DNA of 13,229 nucleotides. Origin: a virus (Duplodnaviria > Heunggongvirae > Uroviricota > Caudoviricetes). The notes beneath the pieces were generated by a model that made no database searches, was not told the DNA's origin, and saw only the letters and a program-made list of their open reading frames with translations. Both the position numbers and the translations under genes were made by a program. Below, piece by piece: positions 365 through 10,127 of this stretch; position 1 is the stretch's first letter; each line of letters opens with the position of its first letter. The stretch spans positions 1 to 13,229 of the IMG/VR virus record IMGVR_UViG_2698536505_000013, one strand, 5' to 3'.

Positions 365-2215
365 ATGTCGATTAAACATTATGATGTTGTCAGGGCGGCG
401 TCGCCGTCAGACCTTGCGGAAAAGCTGACACATAAACTGAAAGAGGGCTGGCAGCCGTTTGGTAGTCCGGTGGCCATAACCCCTTATACCCTGATGCAGG
501 CGATTGCAGCAGAAGGTGATGTGGTGGTCAGTGGTGCAACTGAGCCGGAGTGGTACTACGTCATCGTACTGGCCGGGCAGTCCAATGCCATGGCTTACGG
601 TGAAGGGCTTCCGCTGCCGGATTCATACGATGCTCCGGATCCGCGCATTAAACAGCTGGCGCGCCGCAGTACAGTGACGCCGGGCGGGGCTGCCTGCAGA
701 TATAACGATATTATTCCGGCCGACCACTGCCTGCATGATGTGCAGGATATGAGTACGCTGAATCATCCGAAGGCAGACCTGAGCAAAGGGCAGTATGGCT
801 GTGTCGGCCAGGGCTTACATATTGCCAAAAAACTGCTTCCGTATATCCCGAATAACGCGGGGATCCTGCTGGTACCATGCTGTCGTGGTGGTTCGGCATT
901 CACCCAGGGCGCGGAGGGGACATTCAGTGCGGACGCGGGGGCCAGCCAGGATTCGGCGCGCTGGGGTGTGGGTAAACCGTTATATCAGGACCTGATTGCG
1001 CGCACTAAAGCTGCATTACAGAAGAACCCGAAAAATGTGTTGCTGGCGGTGTGCTGGATGCAGGGAGAGTTTGACATGAGCGCCGCCACCTACGCACAGC
1101 AACCTGCGCTGTTTACAGCCATGCTGAAGCAGTTTCGTGCTGACCTCACTGTGTTTAACGCGCAGTGTCATGGTGGCAGTGCTGTAAATGTGCCGTGGAT
1201 TTGTGGTGACACGACGTATTACTGGAAAAACACCTACGGCACGCAGTACAACACCATTTACGGGGCGTACAAAAACAGGGAGAGTGATGGCGTTTATTTT
1301 GTACCCTTCATGACAGACGGTAACGGCGTCAATACCGCCACTAACGCGCCGACAGAAGATCCGGATATTCCGGCATCAGGATATTACGGTGCGGCATCGA
1401 GAACGAATGGAAACCAGGTATCATCAAACCGCCCGACACATTTCAGTTCATGGGCGCGCAGGAGCATTATTCCGGATCGTCTGGCAACCGCTATTCTGAA
1501 CGCAGCCGGGCGCACCTCAGCCTTCATCAGTGGTAAGGCACCGGAAATCAAACCCTCGCCCGGCGGCAACACACCATCGGGTCCGTCTGCAGATACGTCC
1601 GTTCGCACAATCTCCCTGCTGCCGACAGCCGGAGAGGCTGCTGCGCAGGGCTGGACCATTAAGGACGGCGGAATTCAGTTGTCGGGTGGTGTATTTAAGA
1701 TCGCCAAGCAGAGCAATAAAACCTGGTCCCTGACGCATCCGGTGGATGACGCAATTACCCTGCTGACACAGGGCGGCAGACTGACCTGTAAGTTCCGCCT
1801 GTCAGGCGCACTGACCAACAATCAGTTCGGGCTGGGGATTTATCTGTATACGGACGCTCCCGTTCCTGATGGTGTGGCGATGACGGGTACCGGTAATCCG
1901 TTCCTGATGTCGTACTTCACTCAGACCACTGACGGTAGAGTGAATCTGATGCATCACAGGAAAGCCGGAAACACGAAGCTGGGGGAGTTCGGCGATTACG
2001 GTAACGACTGGCAGACGCTGGAGCTGGTGTTCACCGCCGGCAGTGCCACGGTTACTCCGAAACTGAATGGAGTGGCTGGCCCGGCATTCCAGGTCATAAA
2101 AGACAGTCTGACACTGGGGCTGAATGCGCTGACGCTGACGGATGTTACAAAAAATGCAGCGTATGGCGTTGAGATAGAAAGTCTGGTGCTGGAGATAAAT
2201 GCACCGGCAGCATAA
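365..2215 (+). CDS. nanS-p: Prophage sialate O-acetylesterase-like protein (NanS-p type): N-terminal DUF1737-like region, SGNH-hydrolase core, C-terminal beta-rich putative carbohydrate-binding domain
   Basis: 616-aa ORF with ATG start and a GGGAGA Shine-Dalgarno upstream. It has the GQSNA block typical of the sialate O-acetylesterase/SGNH family and sits directly upstream of the holin, as the 933W-type yjhS/nanS-p gene does. Double stop TAATAA. Confidence 0.8.
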   Translation: MSIKHYDVVRAASPSDLAEKLTHKLKEGWQPFGSPVAITPYTLMQAIAAEGDVVVSGATEPEWYYVIVLAGQSNAMAYGEGLPLPDSYDAPDPRIKQLARRSTVTPGGAACRYNDIIPADHCLHDVQDMSTLNHPKADLSKGQYGCVGQGLHIAKKLLPYIPNNAGILLVPCCRGGSAFTQGAEGTFSADAGASQDSARWGVGKPLYQDLIARTKAALQKNPKNVLLAVCWMQGEFDMSAATYAQQPALFTAMLKQFRADLTVFNAQCHGGSAVNVPWICGDTTYYWKNTYGTQYNTIYGAYKNRESDGVYFVPFMTDGNGVNTATNAPTEDPDIPASGYYGAASRTNGNQVSSNRPTHFSSWARRSIIPDRLATAILNAAGRTSAFISGKAPEIKPSPGGNTPSGPSADTSVRTISLLPTAGEAAAQGWTIKDGGIQLSGGVFKIAKQSNKTWSLTHPVDDAITLLTQGGRLTCKFRLSGALTNNQFGLGIYLYTDAPVPDGVAMTGTGNPFLMSYFTQTTDGRVNLMHHRKAGNTKLGEFGDYGNDWQTLELVFTAGSATVTPKLNGVAGPAFQVIKDSLTLGLNALTLTDVTKNAAYGVEIESLVLEINAPAA

Positions 2216-2259: not shown

Positions 2260-2514
2260 AAGAAGGATAGTTGGGTTTCACATGATACTTATATCTGGCA
2301 GTACATTTTCTGACAGACAGTGACGGATGTTGTCAAGATATTGTGTCATTTATAACCTGAATCAGGGGTTGGTCGGAATGTTATCTGGCATTTTTAGCAG
2401 AGCCTGAATGCCATAATCACGGCTCCCGGCGTTGGCCGTCAGTGGGTGACACTGGCGGCTTTTTGTTTTCCTTTACTTTCATTTTCTGTCGGCGGTGACG
2501 GAGACATACATCAG

Positions 2515-2721
2515 ATGGAAAAAATCACAACAGGTGTGTCATACACCACGTCAGCGGTGGGGACGGGATACTGGTTACTGCAGCTGCTGGACAAAGTCTC
2601 TCCGTCCCAGTGGGTGGCGATAGGTGTGCTGGGGAGTCTGCTGTTTGGCCTGCTGACGTATCTGACTAACCTGTATTTCAAAATCAGAGAGGACCGTCGC
2701 AAGGCTGCCCGGGGAGAGTAA
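2515..2721 (+). CDS. S: Class II holin, phage 21 S21-like pinholin (68 aa)
   Basis: Translation [68 protein letters not shown] has two transmembrane segments and a charged C-terminus, and is close to the phage 21 holin as I recall it. GGAG lies 11 nt upstream of the ATG. The ORF track's longer GTG start at 2446 is a less likely alternative. Confidence 0.85.
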
Positions 2722-2725
2722 AGCG

Positions 2726-3058
2726 ATGAAGAAAAAATACGAACTGGTTGTTAAAGGGATAAATAATTACCCGGATAAGATTACTGTTACTGTGGCACTG
2801 GAAATTGGTGGGTATCCGTCACTGTTGTTGCCAGATGTGGCGATTAGTCTTGACCGTACTGAAGGAGCCACGCTGGAGTTTTACGAAGCTGAGGCGAAAA
2901 AGCAGGCGAAGCAGTTTTTCATGGATGTTGCTGCCGGGTTATGTGAAGGGGATGGTCCGTTGCCGGAAAAGCGGCCCATCATTTTAGAGGCGCAGGATGT
3001 GTTGATAATCTACAGAGGAAAACTACCGGGAATAATTACTGGTTCTCTGAAGACTTAA
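2726..3058 (+). CDS. Conserved hypothetical protein inside the lysis cassette (YdfR/DUF1327-like, from memory); function unknown
   Basis: 110-aa ORF whose ATG is 4 nt after the holin stop, with GGGGAGAG 7 nt upstream. It occupies the holin-endolysin slot, as ydfR does in the K-12 Qin prophage. Its composition is soluble and acidic. Confidence 0.7.
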   Translation: MKKKYELVVKGINNYPDKITVTVALEIGGYPSLLLPDVAISLDRTEGATLEFYEAEAKKQAKQFFMDVAAGLCEGDGPLPEKRPIILEAQDVLIIYRGKLPGIITGSLKT

Positions 3059-3100: not shown

Positions 3101-3634
3101 ATGAACACCAAAATCAAATACGGCCTGTCGGCTGCCGTTCTGGCGCTGATTGCCGCAGGTGCGCCTGCGCCTGAAATCCTCGACCAGTTTCTGGATGAAA
3201 AGGAAGGTAACCACACCACGGCATACCGTGATGGTGCGGGTATCTGGACCATCTGCCGTGGAGCCACCCGGGTGGATGGTAAGCCTGTCCTCCCGGGCAT
3301 GAAGTTGTCGAAGGAAAAATGCGACCAGGTTAACGCCATTGAACGTGATAAGGCGCTGGCATGGGTGGCGAAAAACATCAGAGTGCCACTGACCGAACCC
3401 CAGAAAGCGGGTATTGCGTCATTCTGTCCGTACAACATTGGTCCCGGTAAGTGTTTCCCGTCTACGTTTTACAGACGAATTAATGCAGGTGATCGAAAAG
3501 GTGCCTGCGAAGCGATTCGCTGGTGGATTAAGGACGGTGGCAGAGACTGCCGTATTCGTTCAAACAACTGTTACGGTCAGGTATCCCGTCGTGACCAGGA
3601 GAGCGCGCTGGCGTGCTGGGGAATTGACAGATAA
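3101..3634 (+). CDS. R: SAR endolysin (T4-lysozyme-like muramidase with N-terminal signal-arrest-release domain)
   Basis: 177 aa. The N-terminal Gly/Ala-rich weakly hydrophobic segment GLSAAVLALIAAGAPA is followed by the catalytic E35-x8-D44-x5-T50 spacing of T4-type lysozymes. Pinholin plus SAR endolysin is the established pairing. No obvious Shine-Dalgarno precedes the ATG. Confidence 0.9.
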   Translation: MNTKIKYGLSAAVLALIAAGAPAPEILDQFLDEKEGNHTTAYRDGAGIWTICRGATRVDGKPVLPGMKLSKEKCDQVNAIERDKALAWVAKNIRVPLTEPQKAGIASFCPYNIGPGKCFPSTFYRRINAGDRKGACEAIRWWIKDGGRDCRIRSNNCYGQVSRRDQESALACWGIDR

Positions 3635-3723
3635 GCAGAATATTTTGCTGAAAAATGCGGTTTGCTCACACGGGCGGATAACACGAAATCCTGCGAACTG
3701 GCAAAAACTAAGTGAATAAAAGT

Positions 3724-3756
3724 AAAACCCCGTTTGTTGGCCGCAAGCGGGGTTTT
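3724..3756 (+). terminator. Stem-loop (9-bp stem AAAACCCCG/CGGGGTTTT, 15-nt loop) followed by a U-rich tract, in the R-Rz intergenic insert
   Basis: Perfect inverted repeat with 3' flank TTTTGTGTTT. The large loop is atypical for an intrinsic terminator, so this may instead be an RNA stability or processing element. Confidence 0.35.
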
Positions 3757-3792
3757 GTGTTTCCTGACTCCGGAAAAGTCAAAGGAGAAAGT

Positions 3793-3930
3793 GTGTTTGA
3801 TTTTAGCAAACTGATTCGGGAGATTCGAATGATGGCTGAAAAATTATCCACCTGGAAGTTCATCCTTATCTGGCTGGTGTTTGTGATTATGGCTTCCGGT
3901 TATTTCATTGGTCAGATACGCTGGTGGTGA
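3793..3930 (+). CDS. Small single-pass membrane protein (45 aa from GTG; alternative 33 aa from ATG at 3829) between endolysin and Rz
   Basis: AAAGGAG Shine-Dalgarno lies 5 nt before the in-frame GTG. Translation ...FDFSKLIREIRMMAEKLSTWKFILIWLVFVIMASGYFIGQIRWW has one clear transmembrane helix. Its stop TGA sits 1 nt before the Rz ATG, which suggests translational coupling. Confidence 0.4.
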   Translation: MFDFSKLIREIRMMAEKLSTWKFILIWLVFVIMASGYFIGQIRWW

Positions 3931-3931
3931 A

Positions 3932-4399
3932 ATGAACCGCGTACTGTGCGTGGTCATCATTGCCCTGCTGGTGGCCTGTGGTGCGCTTAGTCTGGGGCTG
4001 AATCATTACCGTGATAACGCCATAACCTACAAAGAGCAGCGCGATAAAAAAGTCAGTGAGCTGGAGCTGGCAAATGCAACCATTACTGATATGCAGGTGC
4101 GCCAGCGCGATGTTGCTGCGCTCGATGCAAAATACTCGAGGGAATTAGCCGATGCGAGAGCTGAAAATGAAACTCTGCGTGCTGATGTTGCCGCTGGTCG
4201 TAAGCGCCTGCGGATCAACGCCACCTGCTCCGGTACCGTGCGTGAAGCCACCGGCACCTCCGGAATGGATAATGCAACCGGCCCCCGACTGGCAGACACC
4301 GCTGAACGGGATTATTTCACCCTCAGAGAGCGGTTGATGACAATGCAGAAGCAACTGGAAGGGGCACAGGACTATATCCGCACTCAGTGCCTGAAATAA
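3932..4399 (+). CDS. Rz: Inner-membrane spanin subunit (i-spanin) Rz
   Basis: Translation from the ATG at 3932 (MNRVLCVVIIALLVACGALSLGLNHYRDNAITYK...RLADTAERDYFTLRERLMTMQKQLEG...) is collinear with lambda Rz: N-terminal transmembrane segment, coiled coil. The track's TTG start at 3908 is less likely. Confidence 0.9.
   Translation: MNRVLCVVIIALLVACGALSLGLNHYRDNAITYKEQRDKKVSELELANATITDMQVRQRDVAALDAKYSRELADARAENETLRADVAAGRKRLRINATCSGTVREATGTSGMDNATGPRLADTAERDYFTLRERLMTMQKQLEGAQDYIRTQCLK
4152..4337 (+). CDS. Rz1: Outer-membrane lipoprotein spanin subunit (o-spanin) Rz1, embedded in the +1 frame of Rz
   Basis: Translation MRELKMKLCVLMLPLVVSACGS... has a lipobox (LVVSAC) and a proline-rich mature part (PPAPVPCVKPPAPPEWIMQPAPDWQTPLNGIISPSE), nearly collinear with lambda Rz1. 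It lies wholly inside Rz. An alternative start is the ATG at 4167. Confidence 0.8.
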   Translation: MRELKMKLCVLMLPLVVSACGSTPPAPVPCVKPPAPPEWIMQPAPDWQTPLNGIISPSESG

Positions 4400-4749
4400 G
4401 TTTTGTTGATGCGCCGTATCGTCGCTGTATTCCCTCATTAACAGAGACCGCAGCCCGACAGGGAGACTCCTCTGCGCGAGTGTGCGGGGATAATCAAAAA
4501 CGATACACACCGGGGTTTACCGCGTTAACGGAGCGCGGCGTTGTCCCCTCATAGTCGCCTGTCCGGTGCGATGGTGGAAGAAGCCGGATGTTTATCACTA
4601 TTAATTGATGACACAGAAATGGATTCATTGAATTTCAGCACGTTTTTGTATTCGTGTTATTGAACATCTGTTTATTTTACTTTTAACATATTGATAATAA
4701 AAAGAGCTGTAAATCTTTAGATGAGTCGATTTTGTCCGGGGAAGTTCAA

Positions 4750-4890
4750 ATGGATTTTATGCTGACGGTTTCTGGTGTGGTTATCCTGTCCATTGCTTAT
4801 ACTGCAGATAAATATGGCTGCCATTTGTTATCACGTATTGGCGCTTATTGTTCGTTGATGCTGATTTTCTCGTCGCTTTTTTTTGAGTAA
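4750..4890 (+). CDS. Hypothetical 46-aa hydrophobic peptide in the AT-rich moron gap
   Basis: ATG ORF (MDFMLTVSGVVILSIAYTADKYGCHLLSRIGAYCSLMLIFSSLFFE) with two hydrophobic stretches and a weak GGGGAAG Shine-Dalgarno-like sequence upstream. It is below the 60-aa ORF-track cutoff and found by manual reading. I do not recognise homologs. Confidence 0.25.
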   Translation: MDFMLTVSGVVILSIAYTADKYGCHLLSRIGAYCSLMLIFSSLFFE

Positions 4891-5022
4891 GTTATATTAA
4901 TTATAACAAATAATTTTCTGTGTTATTTTTTCAGGCTATCCCGTCAGAGGGGAAGCCTGTACTGCCGGGGAGCGAATGGAAAACTGATGTGTCCGGTAAC
5001 TGCGTGTTCTGTGAACACCATG

Positions 5023-5208
5023 TTACTTAATTATGTAATTCATACCCGAACTCTCTGTTGACAGCCTTCTTCTGCAGGCTTCAATAACCCACGCTGAAAA
5101 GTTACTGGACCCTTTATGCTCAAGGGCGATGTTGATCTGTTCAATCATGTGATTGGGGAAACGGATATTGCGGGTTGTGGTTCTGCGGGTCCGGTTTTTC
5201 GATGACAT
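5023..5208 (-). CDS. YlcI-like (DUF3950-type) small basic protein, putative DNA-binding; 61 aa
   Basis: Minus-strand translation MSSKNRTRRTTTRNIRFPNHMIEQINIALEHKGSSNFSAWVIEACRRRLSTESSGMNYIIK. AAGGA lies 8 nt upstream of this ATG, which is why I prefer it to the track's longer 81-aa start. From memory it resembles DLP12 YlcI. It is divergent from the HNH gene. Confidence 0.6.
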   Translation of the reverse strand: MSSKNRTRRTTTRNIRFPNHMIEQINIALEHKGSSNFSAWVIEACRRRLSTESSGMNYIIK

Positions 5209-5249
5209 ATTTATTTCCTTTACTGATTGCCATATGACGGGGATTTTAC

Positions 5250-5615
5250 ATGGCTGAGCTTCGTACACTCCAGAGCAGAATCAAAACTCTGAACACCCGA
5301 CGGGTGAATATTCTGAAGGGGGAACAGCGTCGTGTCAGTGGCAGTGCACGTGTTTCCCTCAAGCGTCATATCTGGCTCAGGGATGCCGGGCAGTGCTGTC
5401 TCTGTGGTCGTGTGGTTGACCTCTGTGACAGTGAACTCGATCACCGCATTGCACTTCAGTTCGGTGGTGGTAATGAGGAGACGAATCTCTGGACGCTCTG
5501 TACCGAATGCCATCGCCAGAAGTCAGTCAGTGAAACGGCGAGTGGTATGCCGGACCCGACGCTGCCGGAGGTGTCCGGAGGTCATGGCAGGGCAGACGAT
5601 ATCATCGGACTGTGA
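5250..5615 (+). CDS. HNH endonuclease (terminase-associated, HK97 gp74-like)
   Basis: 121 aa with paired Cys motifs (CCLCGR ... CTECH) and an HNH core (ELDHRIALQFGGGNEETNLWTLCTECHRQK). GGGGA Shine-Dalgarno. It lies immediately upstream of the packaging region and terminase genes, as in HK97-like phages. Confidence 0.9.
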   Translation: MAELRTLQSRIKTLNTRRVNILKGEQRRVSGSARVSLKRHIWLRDAGQCCLCGRVVDLCDSELDHRIALQFGGGNEETNLWTLCTECHRQKSVSETASGMPDPTLPEVSGGHGRADDIIGL

Positions 5616-5704
5616 TCCGCCCCGGGGGGGGATCATCCGGCGAAAAAAACGATCGCCCCGGACACCGCCCCCCCTCTCATGCAGAGAAAAAATTCCTGTT
5701 TCAG

Positions 5705-5833
5705 GCCAGTTAACATGTTAACTGGCTGCCCGGGCATTTTTGCGGTTTTTATCTTTATTATTCAGTTTGTTGTGCGAAAAAAATGTTAACTGGCTTTTTC
5801 AGCAAATGTTAACCAGGCAGCAGTTAACATTTG
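5705..5833. other. Candidate cos / packaging-initiation region: cluster of palindromes and repeated TGTTAAC motifs in the HNH-terS intergenic space
   Basis: 22-bp perfect palindrome GCCAGTTAACATGTTAACTGGC (5705-5726); 10-bp palindrome TGCCCGGGCA (5727-5736); AAATGTTAACTGGC (5781-5794); inverted repeat CAAATGTTAAC-n9-GTTAACATTTG (5803-5833); intervening AT-rich tract; C/G homopolymer block CCGCCCCGGGGGGGG at 5617-5631. Confidence 0.45.
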
Positions 5834-5904
5834 CGGCATGAGACGCCGGGAAAAATGGGCTGAACCATACCCGGCTGAGTGCGTTATGGACCCGGGAGGA
5901 GGCT

Positions 5905-6468
5905 GTGCTGACAACGCAAAAACGAAAATTTGCGCTGGCGCTCATGTCCGGGAAAAACAAAACAGCGTCAGCCATTGCCGCCGGTTATTCGGCGAAGACC
6001 GCCAGGGTTAAAGGCTCGCAGCTGGCAAAAGATCCGGAGGTGCTCGCGTTTATAGCCCGTAAACAGTGCGAAACGGTGGAGGTGGATGAGGTTCCTGTTT
6101 ACCGGCAGAAAAAATCAGAGCAGGAGGATAAACCCCGTCGTCGTGAGGTGGCTGCAATAACACAGCCGGACGAAAACAATCCGGAGATGCCTCCGCCCGC
6201 GGTGATATCTCATGGTATTGAATATATGGAGGATGGTCTTCCCGATCCGGTGAAAGCTATGGGGCAGATCCTGGTGGAAAACCTGATAATTGACCCGAAA
6301 CTGGCACTGGATGCGGCCTGGCGACTGGCGCAGTTCACACACCATAAAAAAGGCGATGCCGGTAAAAAATCGGCAAAAGGTGATGCCGTGAAAAAAGCGG
6401 CTAACCGTTTTGCGGTGCCACCACCTCCCCGGCTGGTGGTGAATAACCAGAATGAGGAAAGCGGATGA
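5905..6468 (+). CDS. terS: Terminase small subunit
   Basis: 187 aa with GTG start and GGGAGGAGG Shine-Dalgarno. N-terminal HTH-like segment (KRKFALALMSGKNKTASAIAAGYSAKTARVKGSQLAKDPEV) and a basic, low-complexity C-terminus. Its stop overlaps the terL start (ATGA). Confidence 0.8.
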   Translation: MLTTQKRKFALALMSGKNKTASAIAAGYSAKTARVKGSQLAKDPEVLAFIARKQCETVEVDEVPVYRQKKSEQEDKPRRREVAAITQPDENNPEMPPPAVISHGIEYMEDGLPDPVKAMGQILVENLIIDPKLALDAAWRLAQFTHHKKGDAGKKSAKGDAVKKAANRFAVPPPPRLVVNNQNEESG

Positions 6469-8126
6469 TACCTGTATGGAGCACGGCATGTCCGGACTGG
6501 GCAGAGCGCCTGAAAAAGGGGCTGTCGATTATTCCGGCTCCGATTTATCCGGACCAGGCTGCACATGCACTGGCGATTTTTAAACAACTGCGAATTGTGG
6601 ATGCACCGGGTAGCCCGACATTCGGGGAGTCCTGTGCACCGTGGGTGTTTGACCTGGTGGCGGCCCTGTTTGGCTCCTACGATGCGCAGACCGGTGTTCG
6701 CCATATCAAGGAAGTGTTTATCCTTATCCCCAAGAAAAACAGTAAGTCCACGCTGGCCGCGGGGATCATGATGACGGCGCTGTTACTGAACTGGCGGCAG
6801 GCGGCGGGCTACACCATTCTGGCCCCGACCGTGGAGGTGGCGGCTAACGCCTTCAACCCTGCCAGGGATATGGTACGACGGGACGATGATCTGGATGACC
6901 TCTGTCAGGTGCAGACACATATCCGGACCATCACCCATCGGGTGACGGACACCACCCTGAAGGTGGTGGCAGCCGATCCGAATACGGTGTCCGGTATCAA
7001 GTCCGTGGGGACACTGATTGATGAACTGTGGCTGTTTGGCAAGCAGTACAAAGCGGAAGACATGCTACGTGAAGCCATCGGCGGGCTTGCCTCCCGTCCG
7101 GAAGGATTTGTGGTGTACACAACCACCCAGTCGAATGAACCGCCTGCCGGGGTGTTCAGACAGAAACTGCAGTACGCCCGGGATGTCCGTGACGGCAAAA
7201 TTCATGATCCGCACTTTCTGCCGGTGATATTTGAACACCCTCCTGAAATGGTGGAAAGCGGGGCTCACCTGCTGATGGAAAACCTCGCCATGGTTAACCC
7301 GAATCTCGGTTATTCGGTGGATGAGGCCTTTCTGTACCGGGAGTACCGTAAAGCCCGGGAAGCCGGTGAAGAGACATTCCGGGGGTTCATGTCAAAACAC
7401 GCCAATGTGGAAATTGGTCTTGCCCTGCGCTCTGACCGCTGGGCGGGGGCTGATTTCTGGGAAGAGCAGGGCCGTTGTATCAGCCTGGACGATATCCTGC
7501 GTCGTGCTGATGTGGTGACGGTGGGGATTGACGGCGGAGGGCTGGATGATCTGCTGGGGATGTATGTGATTGGGCGTGACCGGGAGACCCGCGAATGGCT
7601 GGGCTGGGGCCATGCCTGGGCGCATGAAACCGCGGTGGTCAGACGGAAGAGTGAGGCATCCCGGTTTCAGGATTTTGTGGCCTGTGGAGACATGACGATT
7701 GTCCGTCGGGTCGGGGATGACACGGCGGAAGTGGCGGAGTATGTGCGTCGTATTCATGAGGCTGAGTTACTGGATCATATCGGTATTGACCCGTCAGGTG
7801 TGGGGCAGATTCTGGATTCACTGGCGGAAGCCGGGATCCCCGATGAGAGTGTGGTGGGGATAAGCCAGGGCTGGAAGCTGGGCGGGGCCATCAAAACCAC
7901 CGAGCGCAAACTGGCTGAGGGAGTGCTGGTGCATGGTGGTCAGCCACTGATGGCCTGGTGCGTTGGCAATGCCCGGGTGGAGCCTAAAGGTAACGCCATT
8001 CTTATCACCAAACAGGCCAGCGGACGGGGAAAAATTGACCCACTGATGGCGCTCTTCAATGCGGTGTCCCTGATGTCCCTGAATCCGGAACCGAAAAAGA
8101 AAGCGTATGAGGTTTTTTTCATATAA
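6465..8126 (+). CDS. terL: Terminase large subunit (ATPase plus nuclease)
   Basis: 553 aa, translationally coupled to terS. It has a P-loop-like segment (ILIPKKNSKSTLAAG) and C-terminal acidic nuclease-like blocks (VVTVGIDGGG, IGIDPSGVG). Its position between terS and the capsid genes supports the call. Confidence 0.9.
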   Translation: MIPVWSTACPDWAERLKKGLSIIPAPIYPDQAAHALAIFKQLRIVDAPGSPTFGESCAPWVFDLVAALFGSYDAQTGVRHIKEVFILIPKKNSKSTLAAGIMMTALLLNWRQAAGYTILAPTVEVAANAFNPARDMVRRDDDLDDLCQVQTHIRTITHRVTDTTLKVVAADPNTVSGIKSVGTLIDELWLFGKQYKAEDMLREAIGGLASRPEGFVVYTTTQSNEPPAGVFRQKLQYARDVRDGKIHDPHFLPVIFEHPPEMVESGAHLLMENLAMVNPNLGYSVDEAFLYREYRKAREAGEETFRGFMSKHANVEIGLALRSDRWAGADFWEEQGRCISLDDILRRADVVTVGIDGGGLDDLLGMYVIGRDRETREWLGWGHAWAHETAVVRRKSEASRFQDFVACGDMTIVRRVGDDTAEVAEYVRRIHEAELLDHIGIDPSGVGQILDSLAEAGIPDESVVGISQGWKLGGAIKTTERKLAEGVLVHGGQPLMAWCVGNARVEPKGNAILITKQASGRGKIDPLMALFNAVSLMSLNPEPKKKAYEVFFI

Positions 8127-8189: not shown

Positions 8190-10127
8190 GTGACTCTTAA
8201 ACGGGCCTGTTCCCTACTGACGGTGAAATCCTTCAGTGAGGATGAACGGGTGATCACCGGGATTGCGTCAACGCCTTCTCCGGATCGGGATGGTGACATC
8301 CTGGAGCCGGAGGGGGCGGAGTTTGGCAGTACGATCCCGTTTCTCTGGCAGCATGACCATTCCCGCCCTGTAGGCCAGTGTACGGTGCGTCGGGTCAGGG
8401 AAGGGCTGGAAATCACGGCAATGCTGGTGAAGCCGGAGCCGGGGATGCCCTCCCAGATGGCAGCCCGGCTGGATGAGGTCTGGGCGGCCATTAAGACCGG
8501 GCTGGTCAGGGGGCTGTCCGTGGGCTTCCGTCCCCATGAATACACCTTTCTGGACGGAGGCGGACTGCATTTTCTGCGCTGGGAACTGATGGAGGTGTCT
8601 GCCGTCACCGTGCCCGCGAATGCGGAATGCACCATCCGGACCATTAAATCTTACGACCGCCCGTTTTCTGCCGCGTCCGGCAACCGGAAACCGGTGGTGA
8701 AAATCGCATCTTCTGCCGGCGCTGCGGCACAGTCAACAACCGTTTTTCATAAGGAAAAGACCATAATGAATATTGGCGAACAGATTAAAAGTTTTGAAAA
8801 CAAGCGTGCAGCGCTGGCAGCCTCCCTTGAGGAGGTCATGACCAAAGCCGCAGAGGAAGGGCGCACGCTGGATGTGGAGGAGGAAGAGCATTACGACAAC
8901 ACCGCAGCGGAAATCCGTCAGGTGGATGCGCACCTGAAGCGCCTGCGTGAACTGGAAGCCGGTAAGGCCGCCACGGCGCAGCCGGTGAAACAGGCCGGTA
9001 ACGGGAATGTGGCCGCGGTGGCTTCAGCGCCGGTGATCCGTGTGGAGCAGAAACTGGAGAAGGGGATTGGCTTCGCCCGCTTTGCCAAATCGCTGGCTGC
9101 GGCTAAAGGCGTCCGATCTGAAGCCCTGGAAGTGGCCCGTCGTCAGTATCCGGATGACAGTCGTCTGCATCATGTCCTGAAATCGGCAGTGGGCGCGGGG
9201 ACCACCACGGATCCGCAGTGGGCAGGCAGCCTGTCTGAATATCAGGAATACGCACAGGACTTTATTGATTACCTGCGTCCGCAGACCATTATCGGGCGAT
9301 TTGGTCAGGGCGGGATCCCTGCACTTCGTCAGGTGCCGTTCAATATCCGTGTGCACGCCCAGGTGTCCGGCGGTGCTGCCGGCTGGGTGGGTGAGGGTAA
9401 GGCAAAACCCCTGACGAAGTTTGATTTTGAATCCATCACCTTCAGTCATGCGAAAGTGTCGGCCATTGCGGTACTGACGGAAGAATTGATCCGTTTTTCC
9501 AGTCCGGCTGCTGATGCACTGGTCCGTAATGCGCTGGCGGAAGCGGTAGTGGCGCGTCTGGATACAGACTTTGTGGACCCGAAAAAAGCGGCGGTGGCGG
9601 ATGTCTCCCCGGCGTCCATCACCCATGATGTGAAGGGCATGGCATCAACCGGTAACCCGGATGCGGATGCCGAGGCCGCGTTTGGCCAGTTTGTGACGGC
9701 AAATCTGCAGCCCACTGGTGCTGTCTGGCTGATGTCCAGCACGAATGCCCTGGCGCTGTCCATGCGTAAAAATGCGCTGGGTCAGAAGGAATACCCGGAC
9801 ATGACCCTGCTTGGCGGCACCTTCCAGGGCCTGCCGGTGATTGTCTCCCAGTACGTGGGTGACCAGCTGGTGCTGGTGAATGCGCCGGATATTTATCTGG
9901 CTGATGACGGCGGTGTGGCGGTGGATATGTCCCGTGAAGCGTCACTGGAGATGCAGTCTGAGCCGGGCGGCGACAGCACCACACCGTCCCCGGTGGAGCT
10001 GGTTTCCATGTTCCAGACAGGCAGCGTGGCCATCCGTGCGGAGCGCTGGATCAACTGGCGTCGTCGCCGTACTGCGGCGGTGGCGGTGATCACCGGAGTG
10101 AACTACGGCAGTGCGTCCGGCGGCTGA
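8190..10127 (+). CDS. Prohead protease (HK97/S78 family) fused in frame to an HK97-fold major capsid protein
   Basis: 645 aa from GTG with AGGAGG 5 nt upstream. The N-terminal ~170 aa carry protease motifs (WQHDH, GLSVGFRP, ELMEVSAVTVPAN). From M193 (internal ATG 8766, AAGGA 10 nt upstream) the sequence looks like a capsid delta domain and HK97-like capsid body. No stop separates the two parts. Confidence 0.85.
   Translation: MTLKRACSLLTVKSFSEDERVITGIASTPSPDRDGDILEPEGAEFGSTIPFLWQHDHSRPVGQCTVRRVREGLEITAMLVKPEPGMPSQMAARLDEVWAAIKTGLVRGLSVGFRPHEYTFLDGGGLHFLRWELMEVSAVTVPANAECTIRTIKSYDRPFSAASGNRKPVVKIASSAGAAAQSTTVFHKEKTIMNIGEQIKSFENKRAALAASLEEVMTKAAEEGRTLDVEEEEHYDNTAAEIRQVDAHLKRLRELEAGKAATAQPVKQAGNGNVAAVASAPVIRVEQKLEKGIGFARFAKSLAAAKGVRSEALEVARRQYPDDSRLHHVLKSAVGAGTTTDPQWAGSLSEYQEYAQDFIDYLRPQTIIGRFGQGGIPALRQVPFNIRVHAQVSGGAAGWVGEGKAKPLTKFDFESITFSHAKVSAIAVLTEELIRFSSPAADALVRNALAEAVVARLDTDFVDPKKAAVADVSPASITHDVKGMASTGNPDADAEAAFGQFVTANLQPTGAVWLMSSTNALALSMRKNALGQKEYPDMTLLGGTFQGLPVIVSQYVGDQLVLVNAPDIYLADDGGVAVDMSREASLEMQSEPGGDSTTPSPVELVSMFQTGSVAIRAERWINWRRRRTAAVAVITGVNYGSASGG

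Follow-up and report, generated by a model that had tools for sequence, protein, structure and literature searches.

A candidate structured RNA beside an exchangeable cargo slot between the lysis and packaging genes of a lambdoid prophage

The DNA analysed here, a viral stretch of 13,229 nucleotides (nt) from IMG/VR record IMGVR_UViG_2698536505_000013 that we refer to as the window, is the late region of an Escherichia coli lambdoid prophage. This work concerns the gap of 850 base pairs (bp) between its lysis cassette and its packaging genes, whose limits, the end of Rz at 4399 and the start of the HNH gene at 5250, agree with those given in a first-pass annotation. We propose that the gap is a three-part mosaic junction in the lambdoid late operon, an explanation which, taken as a whole, we give about even chances of being right. 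Its first part, block A, is a well-supported candidate for a new structured RNA family that is common to phage lambda and this prophage. The second, block B, would be AT-rich exchangeable cargo that occupies a hot spot flanked by the RNA element and the small gene ylcI, and the third, block C, holds the conserved core of ylcI and the HNH gene (Table 1). The cargo slot, which is of the kind called a moron, a gene for a 46-residue protein in block B and YlcI itself are ordinary, previously annotated features of E. coli prophages.

The block borders were defined by blastn comparison of the window with six relatives. Block A (approximately 4409-4588 in this comparison) is retained in all six of them. 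Similarity to phages BP-4795 and Lys8385Vzw is lost at 4588 and regained at 5054-5074; in between, block B is swapped for unrelated DNA of 266 bp in BP-4795 and of 653 bp in Lys8385Vzw. The DLP12 prophage of E. coli K-12 and lambda also carry other DNA in its place. A shift in base composition within the gap had been pointed out before and is borne out, with a GC content of 0.579 at 4400-4570 that falls to 0.33 at 4600-4950, compared to 0.546 for the whole window. The GC-rich side had been described correctly as to its composition, but was taken for nothing else, and the structured RNA candidate in it was missed.

Pattern scans yielded 139 block A loci, which correspond to 91 unique versions, and 45 of these that are mutually less than 96% identical were aligned; a pattern scan of genome contigs gave 7 loci, mostly from Escherichia. 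In a ten-sequence alignment, hairpins were preserved by double changes, and insertions and deletions were not multiples of three. RNAalifold predicted a long-range helix and several hairpins, and inspection then gave a continuous 11-bp helix P2 and an H-type pseudoknot. The predicted architecture consists of a long 5′ hairpin domain, a variable hairpin whose arm length and sequence differ by lineage with retention of pairing, and the 3′ pseudoknot. Across the 45 non-redundant sequences, 96.1% of cells were paired, and 16 pairs had changed on both sides, compared to 6.9 ± 1.7 in shuffles (0 of 500 reaching this number) and 6-11 with slid partners. The covariation score was 0.166, compared to at most 0.069 in the slid controls. 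In an alignment built with a covariance model from 91 hits (90 of them distinct) in 90 searched sources, paired cells amounted to 96.8% and 18 of 50 pairs had changed on both sides, compared to 9.2 ± 1.5 after shuffling (again 0 of 500).

The two stems of the pseudoknot, S1 and S2, are 91-97% paired, and its loop 3 is rich in purines (GGUGGAAGAA). Among the 90 sequences, S1 switches from G-U to C-G in 29, from U-A to C-G in 12 and from C-G to A-U in 7, and S2 switches from G-C to U-A in 21. S2 was left out of the covariance model used for alignment, yet five of its seven pairs show compensatory changes. Two interleaved stems that both carry such changes are the mark of an H-type pseudoknot, and the comparison of the copies argues for this fold. 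G-U cells (289) far outnumber A-C cells (24), and therefore the folded strand appears to be the + strand, which is the sense of the late operon; pairing amounts to 96.1% on the + strand compared to 83.9% on the - strand. Two alternative pairings were tried and rejected. A second GUCGC at 4420-4424 as the partner of the S1 3′ strand shows no covariation and would form G-G in 15 of the 45 sequences, and an inner helix CAGAG/CUCUG can pair at its three central positions in only 25-27 of them.

Several observations weigh against the proposed fold. The compensatory cells come largely from few clades, and we estimate approximately 6-8 independent events. The window copy has a single mismatch in P2 (T4435 opposite C4485) and folds no better than its shuffles (z -0.89), although single-sequence folding is uninformative for block A in general (z -0.89 and +0.68). 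With the covariance model, the window gives a single hit (219 bits) and so does each relative; the copies of lambda and K-12 score lowest (130-134 bits), their middle hairpin is shortened and their S1 pairs poorly by inspection. These two copies may be decaying or differently folded.

The same data bear on whether block A is conserved as DNA, without any function of its RNA, for example as a recombination linker, a protein-binding site or a single-strand DNA structure. The element lies exactly at the mosaic joint of exchangeable modules, its fold energy is unremarkable, G-T pairs are tolerated in single-stranded DNA too, and its 5′ end carries 11-nt direct repeats (CGTATCGTCGC / CGTATTCCCGC; three in locus L005). 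On the other hand, a duplex-DNA binding site or a recombination linker would not be expected to show compensatory changes in six helices with an interleaved pseudoknot among them, and the strand asymmetry of 289 versus 24 cells favours a single-stranded form of the + strand. We give this explanation little credence.

The direct repeats vary in number between copies. Most carry two units, CGTATCGTCGC and CGTATTCCCGC, and phage Lys8385Vzw has three tandem 11-nt units (CGTATCGTCGC; L005, 2342-2375). A repeat of this length corresponds to one helical turn and overlaps the 5′ strands of P1 and P2.

Some phage records present block A as a protein-coding gene, named 'Rz-like spanin' or 'hypothetical protein'. 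Consistent with this, an open reading frame (ORF) of 55 residues at 4387-4554 matches phrog_6954 ('Rz-like spanin') at 1.4e-16, and coding sequences are annotated over block A in phages PA2, P27 and others. However, the annotated ORFs vary in strand, frame and extent among the records, and most records have nothing annotated there; none of the 40 records listed shows an annotated feature under its block A match. The indels are not multiples of three, no third-position bias is seen and no frame is universally open: copies range in length from 165 to 184 nt, and the variable columns are distributed 31/32/28 over the codon phases. Judged by these features of its sequence, block A is non-coding, and the coding explanation is almost certainly wrong. 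The 'Rz-like spanin' coding sequences over the element are found at L009 1535-1738 (phage PA2 gp73) and in NC_049925 (phage P27). Probably, phrog_6954 was built from spurious ORF calls and the 'spanin' label is a propagated mis-annotation.

Block A was then compared to known RNA families. None of the covariance models of Rfam 15, among them those of IsrK, riboswitches and ribozymes, reaches its gathering score in the window; nothing relevant was found at E ≤5 in 4300-5950, nor at E ≤1 in five diverse block A copies including that of lambda. The models of AgvB, AsxR, Esr41 and STnc100 have no match in the window; Pas sequences were not part of this comparison. Literature searches on the block A sequence and on the lambda stretch between bor and lambdap78 returned nothing relevant. 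Like AgvB, AsxR, PasA-D, Esr41 and STnc100, block A belongs to prophages of this kind and occurs in multiple copies in genomes of enterohaemorrhagic E. coli. The small RNAs (sRNAs) of pathogenic E. coli prophages lie at pR′, in the interval from Q to the holin gene, measure 50-90 nt and end in an intrinsic terminator (PMC4104026; bioRxiv 10.64898/2026.05.13.724894), whereas block A measures about 178 nt and has no terminator. Pas, AgvB and AsxR were thus rejected as the identity of block A, being located at pR′ and ended by a terminator.

Block A is present in 1891 of 5426 complete E. coli genomes (35%), at 4522 places, and in 398 phage records with identities down to about 75%, among them 933W-like Shiga toxin (Stx) phages, lambda-like phages and one Salmonella phage. 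The lambda copy lies unannotated at 46,863-47,042 (L140, 1464-1643), between bor and lambdap78, and that of K-12 DLP12 at L007 2505-2685. In 116 of the 119 loci whose upstream sequence is long enough, a homologue of Rz, bor or orf74 is found at most 1.5 kb upstream of block A, and Rz, without exception, shares the strand of block A. What follows downstream varies: YbcV, YlcI, a terminase of the Nu1 or the 933W type, or the 46-residue ORF. The conserved sequence extends from approximately 4 nt ahead of P1 to the final base of S2, and the flanks on either side are unrelated. Since conservation stops at these structural ends, block A has no conserved promoter or terminator, and it must therefore be embedded in a longer RNA.

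In the simplest case, going by established lambda biology, this longer RNA would be the Q-dependent late transcript, read from the + strand. Within it, block A may act in cis as a nuclease-resistant or processing boundary, which would set the stability of the lysis-gene mRNA relative to the following untranslated stretch that bears an antisense gene. Of the roles considered for block A, we infer such a boundary, acting in cis on stability or processing, to be the likeliest, and hold this view tentatively. It is weakened by the position of the cargo. Rz lies 15-1386 nt upstream of block A and the terminase gene 113-1650 nt downstream; because cargo is inserted on both sides, the position of block A is not fixed at the end of the lysis cassette, and an autonomous module fits better than a strict 3′ end of this cassette. 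Additionally, bor, lambdap78 and lambdap79 are listed as non-essential, in a study whose tests did not extend to the element that separates bor from lambdap78 (PMC10695390).

It is possible, though rather doubtful, that block A represents an undescribed class of phage RNA, extending from lambda to the Shiga toxin phages, whose pseudoknotted fold targets host machinery in the lytic cycle. For example, it could withstand ribonucleases or direct them elsewhere, alter RNA polymerase or Rho, or tie up a host factor. If this were true, a functional non-coding element would have gone unnoticed in the right arm of lambda, whose genome is the best studied of any phage. Any function at all would make block A a new RNA player in lambdoid late gene expression, one that roughly one in three complete E. 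coli genomes carries, often more than once, and that Shiga toxin phages and lambda carry as well. It would also correct spurious protein annotations and provide a precise landmark for the left edge of the prophage cargo hot spot.

The sharp ends of the element could also point to a stable non-coding RNA that acts in trans. Such an RNA would be liberated from the late transcript or start at a promoter that has escaped recognition, and it might, for instance, titrate a host protein or RNA as a sponge or decoy or counter a host defence. Block A is a self-contained module in which conservation ends exactly where the structure does, insertions are tolerated on both flanks, and invariant unpaired stretches (AAUCAAAAAC; GGAAGAA in pseudoknot loop 3) are possible contact sites. 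One locus (L028) has two copies 950 nt apart, and regulatory RNAs encoded by prophages are common in such phages (PMC4104026; bioRxiv 10.64898/2026.05.13.724894). However, block A has no conserved promoter, terminator or U-tail, unlike every described Pas RNA or anti-sRNA (PMC4104026), and no target was identified. We consider a trans-acting RNA unlikely. The locus with two copies is a viral contig that carries them on the same strand, at 5052-5244 and 6002-6194.

A further explanation is that block A acts co-transcriptionally on RNA polymerase or Rho, comparable to put of phage HK022 or to processive-antitermination RNAs, and keeps the late transcript going through the untranslated stretch, rich in antisense genes, that precedes the packaging genes. 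Like put and other cis-acting phage RNAs, and like pseudoknotted nuclease-resistant RNAs, block A is embedded in a long transcript, has conserved stems and a pseudoknot, and lacks a promoter or terminator of its own. All loci examined have it ahead of the packaging genes and in the sense orientation of the late operon, and it stands at the start of a stretch that is untranslated in the late direction. Its occurrence is independent of the terminase type, and it contains a conserved AUUAAC that is loosely boxA-like by inspection. But these boxA-like bases are paired within the supported helix P2, the element belongs to a late and not an early operon, and it has no similarity to put or any other Rfam family. 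The Q-modified polymerase of lambda already reads through terminators, so that the need for a further antiterminator is unclear. An antitermination role thus seems improbable, and a stability or processing boundary is still the role that we prefer.

The first-pass annotation had read the gap as a moron site, and this reading holds in part. Juhala and co-workers reportedly described, in 2000, morons of lambdoid phages such as bor in lambda and the stx and anti-sRNA genes downstream of pR′. Block B resembles these in being an optional low-GC segment, inserted between conserved late genes, that carries small envelope-related genes. It occurs in 734 of 5426 complete E. coli genomes, mostly as one copy and with at least 95% identity in all but one, compared to 1891 genomes for block A; any part of 4300-5350 is present in 3919. 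With a GC content of 0.36, block B is atypically low next to the window (0.546) and block A (0.59). Among 76 loci, at least seven alternatives fill the slot that separates block A from ylcI: about 40 nt (17 loci), 250 nt (2 loci), DNA with the 46-residue ORF (15 loci), YbcV (20 loci), 640 nt with a lipoprotein of TonB_C-like annotation (12 loci), 890 nt (1 locus), and YbcV together with YbcW (9 loci). As in lambdoid morons, the same slot of the relatives thus holds YbcV, YbcW, a lipoprotein or nothing, and a variable accessory site between the lysis and packaging modules is confirmed. One of the alternative cargoes (L005, 2659-3000) encodes a protein of about 108-113 residues with a lipoprotein signal (LVMGC) that is annotated as 'protein TonB'.

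The moron reading is weaker as regards autonomous expression from the repressed prophage. Unlike lambdoid morons, block B has no demonstrated promoter and terminator of its own, and a scan found no such signal above chance, which weighs against autonomous cargo. Three promoter-like matches were found compared to 2.1 expected, and no + strand promoter reached the threshold. The only match near the most conserved stretch is on the - strand (4713 to 4685, 9/12); on the + strand, a promoter reading TTGAAC, 18 nt, TAACAT scores 8/12 by inspection. The fold that follows the 46-residue ORF has an energy of only -5.3 kcal/mol (z -0.99), and no equivalent fold is seen in a diverged allele of block B, which speaks against a terminator. 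The 47-bp stretch upstream of the ORF, on the other hand, is conserved. A further difference from lambdoid morons is that the cargo of block B also supplies the 3′ end of the neighbouring ylcI. It had been noted correctly that lambda carries bor in its equivalent region. In the window itself, no match to Bor, YbcV or YbcW was obtained by tblastn (Lom itself was not a query), and the small ORFs of the gap have no Pfam or PHROG match to the Bor, Lom, YbcV or YbcW families.

The gap is indeed low in coding content, with two small genes covering 327 of its 850 bases. Apart from the 55-residue ORF over block A, the remaining small ORFs have no family match. Both genes had been located correctly and are already annotated. 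The first encodes a hydrophobic protein of 46 residues (RefSeq WP_000347013.1, hypothetical protein). Its ATG follows GGGGAAG, and the longest form of the ORF has 52 residues and starts with TTG at 4732. The exact 46-residue sequence occurs on at least 1000 contigs and in only two phage records. A diverged allele of block B (SHP24, L110; approximately 77-82% identity) retains an ORF of 45 residues. With 82% DNA identity, it preserves the start codon, the Shine-Dalgarno sequence, the frame, both hydrophobic segments and a central ADKYG..LLSRIGAYC, and the ratio of non-synonymous to synonymous substitution rates (dN/dS) is 0.32. Compared to this allele, 4660-4706 is 91.5% identical, the ORF 82% and the sequence downstream of the ORF 64%.

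Searches for homologues of the 46-residue protein outside E. coli found none, and it has no match in Pfam, PHROGs or PADLOC. The portion of the Sakai small-gene tables (ribosome profiling) available to us does not contain it. From its conservation pattern, the ORF looks like a real gene for a small membrane protein. The product would be a two-segment inner-membrane peptide, read in the late direction, unlike bor, and perhaps also from its own promoter. By analogy, its role might be superinfection exclusion or envelope modification, which is a guess. Many database members of its cluster are partial (25-44 residues) because their contigs stop within the ORF; block B seems to be a place where short-read assemblies break, as they would at a repeat or mosaic border.

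A small RNA had also been suggested for the AT-rich block. This is not supported, as no known family matches and the promoter and terminator signals are at chance level. More broadly, the block could be a prophage small-RNA locus or a unit resembling a type I toxin-antitoxin system, in which the 46-residue peptide is a membrane toxin checked by an RNA from the conserved AT-rich upstream region. The peptide is small, hydrophobic and two-segmented, the 47-bp upstream region is more conserved than the ORF, and a promoter-like match at 4713 to 4685 is on the opposite strand. But this match is at chance level (3 found, 2.1 expected), and a transcript from it would run away from the ORF, with overlap only if the mRNA of the ORF starts further upstream. 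No Rfam or toxin family matches the AT-rich block, and the gene is oriented in the sense of the late operon and would therefore be expressed in every induced cell anyway. Such a unit is very unlikely, and we prefer to regard block B as exchangeable cargo.

The second gene, ylcI, was confirmed as convergent with the 46-residue ORF and divergent from the HNH gene, from which it is separated by 41 bp. Its product matches Pfam PF13132 at 8.4e-20 (70.8 bits, compared to a gathering cut-off of 25) and phrog_949 at 6.9e-32, and thus belongs to the YlcI/DUF3950 family, in which we found 836 relatives at E ≤0.001. The annotated start is the ATG at 5208, which follows AAGGA; the longest ORF has 81 residues and begins with GTG at 5268. 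The first 49 residues hardly vary, in contrast to a tail that is hypervariable in length and sequence. The mosaic joint lies immediately after the YlcI domain, and the C-terminal tail would be contributed by the cargo next to it. Where the slot has the 40-nt filling, the tail codons come from the antisense strand of block A (P0062; window ORF 4494-4628).

As with YlcI/YnfO in the DLP12 and Qin prophages of K-12, ylcI lies just upstream of the small terminase gene in the same orientation. It is convergent with a small + strand gene, as ylcI is with ybcW in K-12, where the two are listed as a convergent overlapping pair (PMC12288877). Unlike its K-12 counterpart, ylcI of the window precedes a packaging module of the HNH/HK97 type and not Nu1, and its C-terminal tail differs. 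It would be transcribed against the late operon and presumably made from the prophage, like bor in lambda. A promoter-like site (CTGACA, 17 nt, CAGAAT; 5338 to 5310) does not exceed what chance would give in the region; BP-4795 retains it, and Nu1-type phages lack it.

YlcI is probably a ribbon-helix-helix DNA binder, as suggested by its predicted structure. In the AlphaFold2 monomer (confidence score pLDDT 62), an extended N-terminus is followed by helices at 19-32 and 34-52. Its N-I-R-F-P and two helices align with N-L-R-W-P of Arc, which recalls the Arc/Mnt/CopG/NikR group. The assignment lacks statistical support, which counts against it: the best Foldseek hits are NikR and Arc at E 3.7-7.7 and, unlike true members of the group, YlcI gives no significant match (E >3; hhalign probability of 2% against Arc). 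No sequence match to YlcI was found in PDB and no defence model matched in PADLOC; a HicB-like antitoxin PHROG gave a weak match (0.003). It had been proposed that YlcI might bind at 5209-5249. This has no comparative support, and a conserved operator there is unlikely because the sequences upstream of ylcI are unrelated between HNH-type and Nu1-type phages. Lambda carries an intact YlcI/DUF3950 ORF of 64 residues on the complementary strand (NC_001416, 48,109-48,303; L140, 2710-2904), approximately 200 bp from cos, which is unannotated in its RefSeq record.

Table 1. Coordinates of genes, blocks and predicted RNA elements in the window
Feature	Position	Strand	Remarks
616-residue ORF	365-2215		upstream of holin
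Holin	~2446-2721		
YdfR-like gene	2726-3058		
Lysozyme	3101-3634		
Rz	3908-4399		Pfam Phage_lysis 3.5e-50
Rz1	4152-4337		embedded in Rz
Block A	4412-4589	+	GC 0.59; non-coding structured RNA candidate, ~178 nt
5′ domain of block A	4416-4506	+	P1, P2, P3a, P3b (predicted)
P1	4416-4422 with 4500-4506		mostly invariant; U-A/U-G and C-G/U-G alternate
P2	4428-4438 with 4482-4492		98% paired; 4 pairs changed on both sides
P3a	4449-4453 with 4472-4476		
P3b	4454-4456 with 4461-4463		
Variable hairpin of block A	4512-4548	+	P4, P5 (predicted)
P4	4512-4514 with 4546-4548		
P5	4520-4524 with 4534-4538		two-sided changes in 4 of 5 pairs
H-type pseudoknot (predicted)	4549-4589	+	order S1 5′, S2 5′, S1 3′, S2 3′
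S1	4549-4558 with 4568-4577		one mismatch; 4 pairs changed on both sides
S2	4561-4567 with 4583-4589		two-sided changes in 5 of 7 pairs
Block B	4590-5053		AT-rich exchangeable cargo, GC 0.36; includes last ~10 codons of ylcI
Most conserved stretch of block B	4660-4706		upstream of the 46-residue ORF; candidate promoter or regulatory site
46-residue protein gene	4750-4890	+	two hydrophobic segments: MDFMLTVSGVVILSIAYTADKYGCHLLSRIGAYCSLMLIFSSLFFE
Two weak AU-rich hairpins and U-run	4891-4931	+	after the 46-residue ORF; weak terminator at best
Block C			ylcI DUF3950 core and HNH; third block by blastn
ylcI	5023-5208	-	61-residue YlcI/YnfO (DUF3950); antisense to late operon
ylcI leader and candidate promoter	5209-5338	-	promoter-like site inside the 5′ end of HNH
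HNH	5250-5615		PF01844
Small terminase	5905-6468		
Large terminase	6465-8126		
Capsid gene	8190-10127		

The gene assignments in Table 1 are the same in the annotation of close relatives (RefSeq; phage BP-4795). At the left end of the window, the 616-residue ORF matches phrog_143 over its full length, and its position is presumably that of the NanS-p sialate esterase genes in Stx phages. The small RNAs of the pR′ site (AgvB, AsxR, Pas) would be expected near this ORF, where no Rfam family matched. Between lysozyme and Rz lies an ORF of 72 residues with a GTG start (3712-3930), the last 45 residues of which match phrog_6632; relatives carry an antirepressor (Ant) gene in its place.

To the right of the gap, the sequence just past the stop codon of the HNH gene (5617-5692) contains a palindrome of G and C runs, CCGCCCCGGGGGGG, followed by two copies of TCATNCNGNGAAAAAA with a spacing of 44 nt; palindrome and repeats may be part of the cos site. 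Further on towards the small terminase gene, at least five copies of AATGTTAAC(TGGC) are found in both orientations at 5700-5835, and among them lies a perfect 22-bp palindrome, GCCAGTTAACATGTTAACTGGC, at 5705-5726. The AATGTTAAC repeats are probably binding sites for the terminase or of the cos region; binding of YlcI to this interval had been suggested earlier.

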